Source: Enterobacteria phage ATK47. From it: a DNA stretch of 64,000 bases. Positions within the stretch are counted from its first letter, which is position 1. Every line of letters starts with the position of its first letter. The stretch lies in the sequence record NC_055708.1, one strand, 5' to 3'. The translations under genes were made by a program, and so were the position numbers. The notes under the pieces were generated by a model that saw only the letters and a program-made list of their open reading frames with translations, searched no databases and was not told the origin of the DNA. Shown here piece after piece: positions 3,435 through 36,415 of this stretch.

Positions 3435-3509
3435 GGCCCTGTAGCTCAATGGGAGAGCTGTCAGCTCATAACTGATAGGTAGCTGGATCGAAACCAGCCA
3501 GGGTCACCA
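3435..3509 (+). tRNA. tRNA with CAU anticodon (Met or lysidine-modified Ile), includes encoded CCA
   Basis: Hand-folded cloverleaf: acceptor ggccctg/cagggtc, D stem gctc/gagc, anticodon stem gtcag/ctgat, loop CTCATAA, T stem gctgg/ccagc. Confidence 0.75.
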
Positions 3510-3512
3510 ATT

Positions 3513-3589
<77 letters not shown>

Positions 3590-4923: not shown

Positions 4924-5427
4924 ATGAGTCTTTACACTGAACTGAATAAAAAATCTGAAGAATCTGCTGAAACTATTTTTAAAAACGTGCAAAAGCGTAT
5001 TTTGGAAAAGATGTACGATGCAGCATCTAAAGGTGAAAAATCTTGCCGGTTTCCGATGAGGTGTTCTTCTGATTTATGCGCAAATACTATTGAATGGCTG
5101 GAAAGTGAAGGTCTTACGGTAGAGAAAAACCCGGCGACTTCTATTGACAGTGAATCATATATTAGTATTTCTTGGGATAAATCAAGGGTAGAAGAGAAAG
5201 ATGGTGATTGGGTTGTAGATGTTAAAACTTCTGATGGTGGACGTTCTGTTGAAGTTTCAGCTGTAGTTAAAGGTACCCACGGACAAAGGACTTGGGGTTG
5301 GGGTGGTGAAGAAAAAGAAATTGTTCTTAGTGTGATTGCAAGGTCTACTAGCAATAAAATTGCCCAGAGCATCATCTATGCTGCATGTATCGAAGCTGGA
5401 AAAATTTGCAAAATTAAAAATAAATGA
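4924..5427 (+). CDS. hypothetical protein
   Basis: 167 aa ORF with SD AGAGGAAAA; the antisense ORF 4932..5375 is treated as its shadow. Confidence 0.5.
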   Translation: MSLYTELNKKSEESAETIFKNVQKRILEKMYDAASKGEKSCRFPMRCSSDLCANTIEWLESEGLTVEKNPATSIDSESYISISWDKSRVEEKDGDWVVDVKTSDGGRSVEVSAVVKGTHGQRTWGWGGEEKEIVLSVIARSTSNKIAQSIIYAACIEAGKICKIKNK

Positions 5428-5485
5428 TGTACAAACACCATGGACGGTGTTACTATAGACCTATCAAATCAAGAGGAGAAACAAA

Positions 5486-5713
5486 ATGGCTAAAGTTAGT
5501 ATTGATGTCGTTGATTATGAATACACAGAAGAAGTTATTCGCAACCGTCACCCTGAAGTTCGTATCGATTCAGTACAAGATTCCAAGTTCTGGACAACTG
5601 AGCTTAATCTGAGTGGTCCTTATGAAGCTGTTAAGAAGTTCATGGTTGAAGAATACTGCGAAGGAATGCACCCGGAAGACGCCAAGTTTTATGTCAATTT
5701 GATTAAAAAATAA
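5486..5713 (+). CDS. hypothetical protein
   Basis: 75 aa ORF with SD AGAGGAG. Confidence 0.5.
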   Translation: MAKVSIDVVDYEYTEEVIRNRHPEVRIDSVQDSKFWTTELNLSGPYEAVKKFMVEEYCEGMHPEDAKFYVNLIKK

Positions 5714-5748
5714 TTTACAAACTCTTGAGAGCAGAGTATAATGCTCTC
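5714..5748 (+). promoter_or_regulatory. promoter cassette: TTTACAAACTCTTGAGAG..GAGTATAAT with -10 inside palindrome gagagca/tgctctc
   Basis: near-identical second copy at 36017-36052 with compensatory stem changes. Confidence 0.5.
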
Positions 5749-5783
5749 ATTGGATAATAAACCACCAATTGAAAGGTAATAAT

Positions 5784-6377
5784 ATGAACACACTGAAGAA
5801 ACTTGTTGAATTCATCCGCACTAAACTGGGTACTGCTATGGCTAAAAATCTGACTGTCGAAGAACAGTATAACGCAGCTGCAGATAAGTTGATTACCCAA
5901 ATCAAAGAACTAAAAACGGCTTCTGTTAAATCTATTAATGAAGAAAAACGTATTCGCGAACTTGTTAATGAAAAGAACAAGCAAGCCGCTTCTAAGGAAC
6001 GTGAAATTCGTAAGCTCCTGGCTGAAGGACAAGATGTTACCATGCATGCTAAGCTTGGTCTTCTGTATCGTCGAACTGCCGAACAACTTAATACAAAAGC
6101 TGACGGGTATGCCGCTATGCGAATTGAAATTGCTCGTAAGGTGGTTGAACTTGATGATGCTCGTCAGAACCTGGCAATCAAACTCGAATACATTCGTGAA
6201 ACTCGAGCAGCCAATGCCCTTGGTATCTCTACGGCTGATGATGTAATTGAAATCGCTGCACTGACTAAGGTTGATATCGAAGACACTCTGACTCGTGTTG
6301 AAACGTTCAATGGCACTCCAGCTGGTGTCGAAACCACTTCTGCTGATGTACAAGAATATATTAACTCTTTGAAATAA
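5784..6377 (+). CDS. coiled-coil protein of unknown function
   Basis: 197 aa, heptad-rich, SD AAAGGTAA. Confidence 0.5.
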
Positions 6378-6385
6378 AATAATAC

Positions 6386-6408
6386 GGAGGACTCCGGTCC
6401 TCCTTTTG
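6386..6408 (+). terminator. rho-independent terminator (ggaggac tccg gtcctcc TTTT)
   Basis: perfect 7 bp stem and T-run. Confidence 0.6.
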
Positions 6409-6426
6409 GATAATAAAGGAGTTAAC

Positions 6427-7029
6427 ATGCGAAACCAAAATAATGATATTGACTCAATGTTCGAAGAGTTCCGAGATAAGGTAAATCCACCTACGTCCTT
6501 AGTTGATTCATTACGATATGTTGCAACCGGACGTAAATGGTACTGGTCGTCTTCTTATGAGACCACCGAGAAAACGGCTAGCCATAGCAGAAAATCTTTA
6601 TTAGCCCCAGGTATTATGATTCATGATATCGGAGCTATTGCTAAACTAGTTGCAGACCATGATATTAGATTCACTGATTTCGTTGCTCCTACGTGGTCTG
6701 TTTGTTGTTTAAACACTGAATGGGAATATATCAGCGAACGCTCTGAAGATTATTATGGTTTTAGAGATAAGCTTCTGAGGTCTAATATGTTTTATATCGA
6801 TACAGAAGTTCTAGTCGATAATAAAAAATATTACTTTACGTTAATCATCGATTCTGAAACTATGTATGAAGGCAAGCCTTTGCTTAAAAGAGTTGATGCT
6901 TTAAGTGCTATTGATGCGCTTTATGAAACTATGGTTGTTAGTCCTAATTTCACTAACAATTTAATCCTTGAGCAATTTATTATGGAATGTAGAGAATATG
7001 TCAAAGCCAACCCTATACATGCCAAGTAA
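6427..7029 (+). CDS. hypothetical protein with FIMECR motif
   Basis: 200 aa ORF, SD AAAGGAG. Confidence 0.5.
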   Translation: MRNQNNDIDSMFEEFRDKVNPPTSLVDSLRYVATGRKWYWSSSYETTEKTASHSRKSLLAPGIMIHDIGAIAKLVADHDIRFTDFVAPTWSVCCLNTEWEYISERSEDYYGFRDKLLRSNMFYIDTEVLVDNKKYYFTLIIDSETMYEGKPLLKRVDALSAIDALYETMVVSPNFTNNLILEQFIMECREYVKANPIHAK

Positions 7030-26177: not shown

Positions 26178-26208
26178 TGTACAACCAAGGATGGTTGGAG
26201 TATAATAA
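26176..26208 (+). promoter_or_regulatory. promoter cassette AACCAAGGATGGTTGGAGTATAAT
   Basis: near-identical element at 27196-27228. Confidence 0.45.
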
Positions 26209-27195: not shown

Positions 27196-27228
27196 GGTTT
27201 ACAACCAAGGACGGTTGGAGTATAATGA
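27196..27228 (+). promoter_or_regulatory. promoter cassette GTTTACAACCAAGGACGGTTGGAGTATAAT
   Basis: second copy of 26176 element. Confidence 0.45.
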
Positions 27229-35080: not shown

Positions 35081-35374
35081 ATGGGTAAAACATATCGTCG
35101 TAAAGATTTGAAAGTTCGCGATTACGACTATTTTGGTAAGCGTAAAGCTCCTGACGGTGTTAGCCACAAAGACATGGTTGAAAACATCTTCCGCTCAGAT
35201 AAATGGAAACGTATGAAAGGTGTTGATTCTGAAGTCAAGAATGAAATGAATCGACAACTCCGCAAAGAGGTTCGTAAGTTGAAAAAAGATGTTTACAGTA
35301 AAGAAGAGTATGATTATAATACTTCTCATACTGAAGCCAAACGTAAAGCTAACGAATGTTATCGTTACAGTTGA
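35081..35374 (+). CDS. basic hypothetical protein
   Basis: ORF from ATG at 35081. Confidence 0.4.
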   Translation: MGKTYRRKDLKVRDYDYFGKRKAPDGVSHKDMVENIFRSDKWKRMKGVDSEVKNEMNRQLRKEVRKLKKDVYSKEEYDYNTSHTEAKRKANECYRYS

Positions 35375-35512: not shown

Positions 35513-35713
35513 ATGAATCCTGAATCTATGTTATCGCAAAAGCTTCGTGAAGAACGTGCCGAATTCTTTGCCAATATGAAACTCAACGGCGTTGAGGATG
35601 AAGACTTCTTACGCTGGTTCTGGATTTACAAATACAAAGAATGCCAGCACGCTGTACTATTGACTTGTGCAGCTATGTACGAAGGCTGGAAAGGCGCTAA
35701 AAAGTTCGGTTAA
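35513..35713 (+). CDS. hypothetical protein
   Basis: ORF from ATG at 35513. Confidence 0.4.
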   Translation: MNPESMLSQKLREERAEFFANMKLNGVEDEDFLRWFWIYKYKECQHAVLLTCAAMYEGWKGAKKFG

Positions 35714-35776
35714 CAATGTACAACGATAGGAAGACATGTTATTATCTTCCTATCGTCTTAAAATGAGGAAAATATC

Positions 35777-36016
35777 ATGGCCCAAGAATTAGATTTTATC
35801 AAATTCAAAAAACACCTCGACGTTAAAATTGGGGATTCAATTGTTAGGATTGAGTATGACATTTTAACAGATGCTATTACTGTTAGTTGTGATGGAAATA
35901 GTTTCAGCTTCGATACAACCGAAAACAAATACCCAATCTATAAAGGTATCTTTGATATGGGTGTTGATATTACTCCACGTGATACAAATTACTTACTTTT
36001 CATGCTTAAAAAATAA
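35777..36016 (+). CDS. hypothetical protein
   Basis: 79 aa ORF with SD GAGGAAAA. Confidence 0.4.
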   Translation: MAQELDFIKFKKHLDVKIGDSIVRIEYDILTDAITVSCDGNSFSFDTTENKYPIYKGIFDMGVDITPRDTNYLLFMLKK

Positions 36017-36052
36017 TATACAAACTCTTGAGAGATGAGTATAATTCTCTCA
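36017..36052 (+). promoter_or_regulatory. second copy of TACAAACTCTTGAGAG..GAGTATAAT cassette, palindrome gagaga/tctctc
   Basis: direct comparison with 5714-5748. Confidence 0.5.
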
Positions 36053-36082
36053 TCGGATAATAAAATAACCGAGGAAAATAAT

Positions 36083-36415
36083 ATGTCTACTAAAATCAAA
36101 AACGTAGTTAATTCTTTCGCTTTCGATAAAGTTGTTGCTCTTCTGGAATCCGGCAATATTGTTACTCCTCAAGTTCTTGACGCATGGGAATTCCGTCTTT
36201 ATGAAATCATGCAAAAACACGACCAGAAAATTGGACGTAATTCTATTCGTGAAATTCTAGTGCAATATATTCTTTCTGAATTTGACGTTGCTGCATTTGG
36301 TGTTGAATCTAAAGCTTATCAGAAACATGAAATCTCTGAAAAGACTATCCGTCGTATGAAAAATCAACGTAAGAAAAAATTCGTTGACCTGAAAATTGTT
36401 AAGGCGGTAAAATGA
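36083..36415 (+). CDS. hypothetical protein
   Basis: ORF from ATG at 36083. Confidence 0.45.
   Translation: MSTKIKNVVNSFAFDKVVALLESGNIVTPQVLDAWEFRLYEIMQKHDQKIGRNSIREILVQYILSEFDVAAFGVESKAYQKHEISEKTIRRMKNQRKKKFVDLKIVKAVK

Follow-up and report, generated by a model that had tools for sequence, protein, structure and literature searches.

Why would a phage carry nearly the same promoter twice, before unrelated genes, and alter the palindrome around its -10 element without losing the complementarity of the two arms? This question is raised by two loci in the 64,000-nucleotide stretch of DNA analysed here (the window). Copy 1, TTTACAAACTCTTGAGAGCAGAGTATAATGCTCTC, was confirmed at positions 5714-5748. 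Copy 2, TATACAAACTCTTGAGAGATGAGTATAATTCTCTC, is likewise present, but it occupies 36017-36051; the end at 36052 given in the first-pass annotation is one base too far, and the string quoted there actually spans 36019-36051. The two copies had been credited with about 30 common nt, which is true but understated, as alignment of the loci (5703-5761 against 36006-36064) yielded a homology of 59 nt at 91.5% identity. When the window was searched with the pattern TACAAACTCTTGAGAGNNGAGTATAAT, allowing up to three mismatches, exactly two sites were returned, with none expected from 100 shuffles. Over window positions 5000-7000, the sequence matches that of Enterobacteria phage ATK48 (KT184310.1) at 100% identity; this phage is RB69-like and belongs to the genus Mosigvirus in the T4 subfamily. 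Its complete genome of 169,729 bp served for whole-genome counts; window positions equal record positions minus 24504. The KT184310.1 record also contains many implausible short features (attP, lambda OL1/OL2 'repressor-binding sites', an 'IS1b terminal IR', 'StbAB binding sites') and doubtful product names, e.g. ModA.2 as a molybdenum ABC transporter protein; these odd annotations look like pattern-match artefacts.

Copy 1 follows a frd.3-like ORF and precedes an e.6-like gene, and copy 2 separates an ORF resembling RB69 ORF075c from a 55.2-like gene; the parts of both copies given below are on the + strand. On BLAST alignment, the shared homology begins within the terminal codons of the upstream ORFs (...KK*) and continues into the 5' UTR. 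In copy 1, its 5' edge is an A-rich, UP-element-like tract starting at 5703 (TTAAAAAATAA, 5703-5713), within which the frd.3-like ORF runs through its final codons to the TAA stop (5711-5713). A -35 hexamer of the T4 early-promoter type, TTTACA (5714-5719), is followed by a 17-nt spacer that includes the 5' arm of the stem, GAGAGCA (5727-5733), as assigned by folding and covariation. Sequence, fold and promoter scan agree on the -10 element TATAAT (5737-5742). Its positions -12 to -8 fall within a loop of 8 nt, GAGTATAA, which is closed by a pair involving T-7. The 3' arm, TGCTCTC (5742-5748; fold and covariation), lies in the discriminator region, and T5726 and A5749 may extend the stem by an optional pair. 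Judged from the spacing, transcription is predicted to start at A5749, 7 nt after the -10 element and directly past the stem; 20 of the 26 family members have a purine, A or G, in this column. A Shine-Dalgarno sequence, AAAGG, and the ATG of the e.6-like gene (5784-5786) form the 3' end of the cassette (5772-5786).

The same elements recur in copy 2. An A-rich tract (36006-36016) includes the TAA stop (36014-36016) of the ORF075c-like ORF, and is followed by the -35 sequence TATACA (36017-36022), the 5' arm GAGAGA (36030-36035, from the fold, with T36036 unpaired), the -10 sequence TATAAT (36040-36045) and the 3' arm TCTCTC (36046-36051, from the fold), with the predicted start at A36052. The 5' UTR (36053-36085) contains a hairpin, TCGG (36053-36056) with CCGA (36069-36072), a Shine-Dalgarno sequence, GAGG (36071-36074), and the ATG of the 55.2-like gene (36083-36085). 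In both copies, the promoter occupies the interval from a stop codon to the ATG that follows, in the order A-tract with stop, -35, 17-nt spacer ending in the 5' arm, GAG-TATAAT, 3' arm, purine, leader, Shine-Dalgarno sequence and ATG. The 3' arm opens with the last T of the -10 element and fills the discriminator; the start-site purine follows 7 nt after the -10 element. With a leader of ~30 nt, the cassette spans an intergenic gap of roughly 70 nt.

The reading of these segments as a repeated promoter cassette with a palindrome at the -10 element is supported by our analysis. In a promoter scan, the TTTACA-N17-TATAAT arrangement of copy 1 scored 11 of 12 matches to the σ70 consensus, and GenBank labels this copy 'similar to consensus host promoter'. 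The palindrome does differ between the copies while remaining complementary: the C5732-G5743 pair of copy 1 is replaced by A36035-T36046 in copy 2, and the innermost pair, A5733-T5742, corresponds to a T:T mismatch. The predicted stem thus counts 7 bp for copy 1 against 6 for copy 2; an optional outer pair, T5726-A5749 in the former and T36029-A36052 in the latter, raises these lengths to 8 and 7. Folded as RNA, the intergenic regions of copies 1 and 2 gave total minimum free energies of -15.6 and -11.9 kcal/mol respectively. As for the flanking genes, which had been called unrelated, the downstream proteins gave no BLASTP alignment, and the upstream proteins have only a terminal ..KK in common, two residues encoded by the A-tract of the cassette.

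Downstream of the start, copy 1 contains a weak 5' UTR hairpin that was spotted by eye, ATTGG (5749-5753) with CCAAT (5765-5769). Within Mosigviruses it belongs to a series, UUGG/CCAA (copy 1), UUGG/CCGA (locus L041) and UCGG/CCGA (copy 2). The minimum-free-energy fold recovered the version of copy 2 only, not that of copy 1, and the pairing is conserved neither in the JS98-type or AR1 orthologues nor outside Mosigviruses. We therefore regard this 4-5 bp hairpin as a weak lead to a second conserved structure. The first transcribed bases themselves are conserved family-wide as yGGA(T/G)(A/T)ATAAA (window 5750-5761 and 36053-36064; alignment columns 37-41 onward). In several genera, including at T4 motB, these bases read GGAG, the motif of the RegB endoribonuclease; the Mosigvirus copies have GGAT.

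To place the two copies in a wider family, we searched the ATK48 genome, a phage collection and IMG/VR. BLAST found four cassette copies in ATK48, two of them beyond the window, before ndd and after pseT.1, and both with the stop-to-ATG layout of copies 1 and 2. The ndd copy is 100% identical to copy 1 over 35 nt, while the stem of the pseT.1 copy, AGGAGCA/TGCTCCT, displays two more double-sided compensatory changes. In the phage collection, BLAST returned three to four cassette places per Mosigvirus record and one in T4-like records, upstream of motB. In Tequatrovirus AR1, the cassette separates e.7 from e.6, and its stem reads GGGAGTA/TACTCCC. An IMG/VR scan in which only TACAAACTC and GAGTATAAT were fixed, leaving both arms free, yielded 37 loci from T4-like contigs, in which the cassette again precedes motB, ndd, 55.2 and e.6 orthologues. 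Across T4, AR1, JS98-like and VR-like phages, the cassette is found 5' of these same four genes; it has been kept before orthologous genes in at least four genera, with compensatory changes in the stem.

These sequences allowed us to ask what is conserved in the palindrome. The family set comprised 24 distinct sequences, or 26 once three variant -35 hits had been added; two loci (L051 and L135) with a TTTACC or TTTAGG -35 sequence and no pairing were taken as chance matches and left out. The claim of maintained complementarity was strengthened by this set: the 26 members display 13 stem types, and 95.2% of the cells in their alignment are paired, compared with 36-57% when the partners are slid. 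Changes on both sides were seen at five of the eight stem pairs, of which the eighth, outermost one is optional (unpaired in 6 of 26 cells). The covariation score of 0.545, against 0.25 ± 0.02 in shuffles, was reached by none of 500 shuffles, a statistic that overstates independence since the sequences are related. The independent events that we counted amount to about five wobbles and at least 12 stem changes. As a negative control we used a broader IMG/VR pattern, AACTC-N9-GAGTATAAT, whose listed matches are mostly unrelated contigs; among these matches, the control promoters TTGACA-AACTC-N9-GAGTATAAT from unrelated phages pair at only two to three of the seven positions. Given the variety of stems at orthologous as well as paralogous sites, there is little doubt, despite the relatedness of the sequences, that the stem has been selected.

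The changes also carry information about the strand. Counted over the 24 sequences, the 7-bp core contains 157 Watson-Crick, nine G:T, no A:C and two T:T cells, all of its wobbles being G:T on the sense strand. This bias identifies a sense-strand hairpin as the selected structure. Consistent with this, the sense strand of family members folds better than the reverse complement (mean -12.9 versus -10.6 kcal/mol; Wilcoxon p = 6e-5), and the same holds for 19 ATK48 promoters (mean -10.2 versus -8.1 kcal/mol; p = 4e-4), a result unaffected by one segment (record 60237) that was mis-registered by 5 nt. At the level of sequence evolution, these data show that pairing on the sense strand is under selection. 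As the stem ends immediately before the predicted start, only two places are left in which the hairpin could form, namely RNA read through from upstream promoters and the non-template strand of the DNA. Sequence alone would fit both; we infer that the molecule in question is the read-through RNA. Rfam 15, run on the whole window at the gathering score, gave no match at the cassettes and reported only tRNAs (3435-3506 and 3513-3586).

Hairpins turned out to be a general property of the early promoters of this phage. Scanning ATK48 for T4-type early promoters followed by a Shine-Dalgarno sequence and an ATG identified 28 sites on the early-gene strand, and the 40-nt promoter cores fold more stably than random genomic 40-mers (mean -8.1 versus -4.3 kcal/mol; Mann-Whitney p = 3.5e-6). 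The promoters sort into three hairpin families, namely A (the cassette studied here), B and C. Family B, TTTACA...TAGGACTATGnTATAGTAGTCCTATCA, has stems of 10-12 bp, folding at -11 to -19 kcal/mol, in which a -10 element of the sequence TATAGT or TATTAT is partly included; its -10 hexamers are at window positions 1585, 8551, 20396, 24559 and 59325 (record 26089, 33055, 44900, 49063 and 83829), its G:U pairs occur on the sense strand only, and its tails are A-rich. In family C, ACCAAGGAyGGTTGGAG, a 5-6 bp stem (CAACC/GGTTG) lies wholly within the spacer; the pattern T(G/T)TACA-ACCAAGGA(T/C)GGTTGGAG-TATAAT describes copies at window 26178-26206 and 27198-27226 and at record 93724, 94281 and 141182. 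A neighbour of copy 2 on the + strand (35717-35756), which belongs to another family than the cassette studied here, consists of TGTACA, a 17-nt spacer and TATTAT, and its -10 element is enclosed by a 12-bp stem without mismatches, ACGATAGGAAGA/TCTTCCTATCGT. A further promoter, TTTACA-N17-TATAAT (35292-35340, -10 at 35315), whose -10 element is flanked by the arms of a 7-bp stem (AGTATGA/TCATACT), is not intergenic but falls within the 3'-terminal part of the 55.5-like coding region.

What, then, could the hairpin do? Strong promoters necessarily share hexamers, and the genome is AT-rich, so a chance likeness or a neutral leftover of duplication, lacking a selected structure, has to be considered; it is barely credible here, given that no such sites are expected by chance, that compensatory changes occur in at least four genera and that flank-matched control promoters lack the pairing. 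The position of the stem between genes and its G+C-rich 7-8 bp are reminiscent of a classical intrinsic (Rho-independent) terminator of the upstream gene that overlaps the next promoter by chance, and the stem of a comparable element in phage RB49 lowered the expression of a downstream lacZ to the same degree as rrnB T1 did (PMC2839356). However, a T-run after the stem is absent in all three promoter families, the tails being A-rich (AUUGGAUAAU after the hairpin of copy 1, AUCGGAUAAU after that of copy 2), which argues against a canonical terminator. A terminator-pattern scan passed over the cassette hairpin, though it flagged a terminator at 6386-6403, and the GenBank record has no ARNold-derived terminator annotated on it. 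Classical termination is therefore an improbable function, and the 'effective terminator' role ascribed to the RB49 stem may not apply here. The element at 6386-6403, GGAGGACTCCGGTCCTCC followed by TTTT, is a canonical intrinsic terminator directly after the e.6-like gene, which leaves the e.6 unit bounded by a promoter-hairpin cassette on one side and by a true terminator on the other. Inverted repeats centred on a -10 element are also typical of many operators, and a dimeric phage or host protein bound to duplex DNA might shut off or modulate these early promoters; AsiA does not explain the shut-off of T4 early promoters, and the tendency of each lineage to share one stem variant could reflect co-evolution with such a protein. 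Against this, it is the pairing and not the sequence that has been kept: the stem occurs in 13 variants, of which ATK48 alone has three (GAGAGCA, GAGAGA and AGGAGCA), and we found no half-site conserved on duplex DNA. The excess of nine G:T over zero A:C cells and the better fold of the sense strand would be meaningless for a duplex operator, and the other ATK48 promoter families have quite different stems in the same or shifted positions. We consider an operator very unlikely, and the protein-binding test that had been suggested for the palindrome is not favoured by a conservation of pairing rather than of stem sequence.

A structure in the DNA itself is harder to separate from one in RNA, as the wobble asymmetry fits the non-template strand equally well. 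A non-template hairpin or a cruciform might offer the bases of the -10 element unpaired to σ70 and thereby accelerate opening of the promoter, or present a target to a recombination enzyme that makes mini-circles, and in both families A and B the loop always holds positions -12 to -9 of the -10 element; for the related elements discussed below, the stem was indeed speculated to be a recombination target, and a crossover was found within the loop (Arbiol et al., 2010; PMC2839356). Yet extrusion of a cruciform is disfavoured by the shortness of the stems (6-8 bp) and by the A:C mismatches that G:T pairs become on the opposite strand; nor would a symmetric cruciform be expected to produce a sense-strand asymmetry. 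Families B and C fit poorly: the stem of family C lies wholly in the spacer and leaves the -10 element unexposed. T-7 is paired, and near-consensus σ70 promoters need no such help. We give structure formation in DNA only a slight chance. Similarly small is the chance of its more specific version, in which a non-template hairpin would pre-open positions -12 to -8 for faster capture by σ70 holoenzyme than at host promoters, and/or would be the substrate of a structure-specific phage nuclease that drives cassette exchange. In that case, how strong a promoter is or how genes are shuffled in T4-like phages would depend on DNA secondary structure, a dependence not known from σ70 promoters.

The cassettes agree with a class of elements already described in T4-like phages. 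In phi1/RB49, Arbiol et al. (2010; PMC2839356) defined promoter-early stem-loops (PeSLs) as a stop codon in an AT-rich tract, a σ70-like promoter, a stem-loop, and a Shine-Dalgarno sequence with ATG; they noted G-T pairs, measured promoter and terminator activity, and connected PeSLs with mini-circles and the shuffling of ORFans. Comeau et al. (2014; PMC4122927) extended PeSLs to PST/T4 (TTTACW-N17-TAYWAT) and nt-1/KVP40, drawing the T4/PST stems just upstream of the promoter and not around the -10 element. The cassettes described here are of the PeSL type and belong to the subclass whose stem overlaps the -10 element, rather than to a new kind of element. They possess every sequence-level hallmark of PeSLs. 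Specifically, they lie in intergenic regions between a stop codon and an ATG (5784 in copy 1, 36083 in copy 2); they carry a σ70-like promoter with ~17-nt spacing, both copies being counted as fitting TTTACW-N17-TAYWAT; their covarying stem-loop flanks the -10 element, as described for PeSLs; they are repeated, with tens of nt conserved among four copies; and small ORFs have been inserted, deleted or replaced next to them, as seen from the breakpoints at 5706 and 35702/36009, the extra ORF of contig L032 and the reuse of flanks detailed below. The layout, the repetition, the tolerance of G-T pairs and the turnover of small ORFs are all common to both. A stem overlapping the -10 element is among the two commonest PeSL subclasses of phi1, and this phi1/RB49 subclass is the closest match; the subclass with its stem 'between -35 and -10' corresponds to family C. 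There are also differences. RB69-like Mosigviruses were analysed in neither PeSL paper, the stems here are of the GAGAGCA and GGGAGCA types rather than the G4...C4 of RB49 and are followed by no T-run, and, unlike the T4/PST stems of the 2014 study, the stem embraces the -10 element both here and at T4 motB.

The promoter part of the cassette resembles T4 early promoters in its GTTTAC-type -35 sequence, its TATAAT -10 element and its A/T-rich upstream region (reviewed by Hinton, 2010; PMC2988021). For RB69, 57 early promoters were predicted, with C favoured at -3 to -1, a preference that corresponds to the 3' arm of the present stem (Nolan et al., 2006; PMC1524935). The sites described are located 5' of early-gene orthologues and novel ORFs, as are ours. 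A term search of Nolan et al. (2006) gave no mention of stem-loops, palindromes or inverted repeats, and neither an inverted repeat nor covariation is described in the passages covered of either paper (PMC2988021, PMC1524935). The cassette differs from these promoters in lacking a TGn extended -10 motif; its sequence is GAG-TATAAT. Like lambdoid-phage morons, the genes behind the cassettes are small accessory genes with their own promoter; unlike them, they come with a conserved, repeated boundary cassette that would supply homology for recombination (PMC2839356).

Promoter hairpins as such have a precedent outside this group. The promoters of the phage N4 virion RNA polymerase, a phage-encoded single-subunit enzyme, are hairpins in the template strand with 3-nt loops, and their inverted repeat, centred ~10-12 nt upstream of the start, is placed much as it is in the cassette. 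In contrast, the cassette promoter is of a near-consensus σ70 type, and its asymmetry points to the sense strand.

The second property of the cassettes is their association with changes in gene content. Homology between ATK48 and AR1 starts exactly at 5706, upstream of which the genes differ (frd.3-like versus e.7). At the same place, frd.3 and e.6 are separated in contig L032 by an additional ORF of ~80 codons, which has a cassette on each side, a family-C-like promoter on the left and a family-A cassette on the right, and the two alignments overlap in the -35 region. JS98-like phages are without window positions 35702-36008; homology resumes at 36009, and in these phages the stop codon of 55.3 abuts the cassette. 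The ORF075c-like gene of ATK48 (35777-36016), which is absent from JS98-like phages, is bracketed by the cassette at 35717-35756 and copy 2. In JS98-like contigs, one upstream flank with its cassette is joined to three different downstream ORFs, and in the family at large stem variants cluster by lineage, not by locus. Finally, T4 motB has a family-A cassette as its predicted promoter and the motB candidate of ATK48 an apparent family-C cassette; if this candidate is indeed motB, the cassette in front of an orthologous gene was swapped. The candidate, an unannotated ORF at record ~94323 (locus L004 ~5924) that begins MITIGEIKRVS, resembles the N-terminus of MotB by eye. Another unannotated ORF, of ~66 codons (35513-35713, ending ...YEGWKGAKKFG*), is homologous to JS98-like 55.3, and its ATG overlaps the 55.4 stop codon.

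At the loci compared, the points at which homology between related phages breaks off, and at which genes have been inserted or deleted, coincide exactly with cassettes. Collectively, the breakpoints, the bracketed ORFs, the reuse of flanks, the clustering by lineage and the motB case point to exchange and homogenisation between cassettes. We infer that homologous recombination between cassettes would account for the insertions and deletions and for the homogenisation, and a candidate partner pair for the formation of a mini-circle is the cassette at 35717-35756 with that at 36017-36051.

Taken together, the cassettes are probably PeSL-type elements that combine punctuation of read-through RNA with portable homology for recombination. 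According to this model, a strong σ70 early promoter, T(T/A/G)TACA, 17 nt, TATAAT, would drive the downstream small early gene, and a G+C-rich inverted repeat of 6-8 bp would place one arm in the spacer, the other in the discriminator and the -10 element in the loop. Host RNA polymerase would start directly past the stem, and transcripts of the cassette promoter should therefore be devoid of the hairpin. Read-through transcripts from upstream promoters, however, would carry it, folded as sense-strand RNA. There it would most likely punctuate the read-through RNA, be it by attenuation, by pausing or by providing a processed upstream mRNA with an exonuclease-resistant 3' end; a literature search for public T4 5'/3'-end or termination maps found nothing usable. 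The ~60 nt common to the copies make the cassettes portable homology as well, and comparison among phages suggests that the phage recombination system would use it for the insertion, deletion and exchange of small genes and for the homogenisation of copies.

These findings extend the PeSL concept to RB69-like phages and define a subfamily of PeSLs, with a stem embracing the -10 element, that is conserved across several genera of T-even phages, T4 among them, before motB, ndd, 55.2 and e.6. Quantitative covariation and a wobble pattern confined to the sense strand are apparently absent from the previous PeSL papers, as is the observation of the missing U-tract, which questions the label 'terminator'. 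For T4-like phages used in therapy, the cassettes predict sites at which accessory genes are gained and lost, and for phage engineering they may represent compact, strong modules of promoter plus leader.
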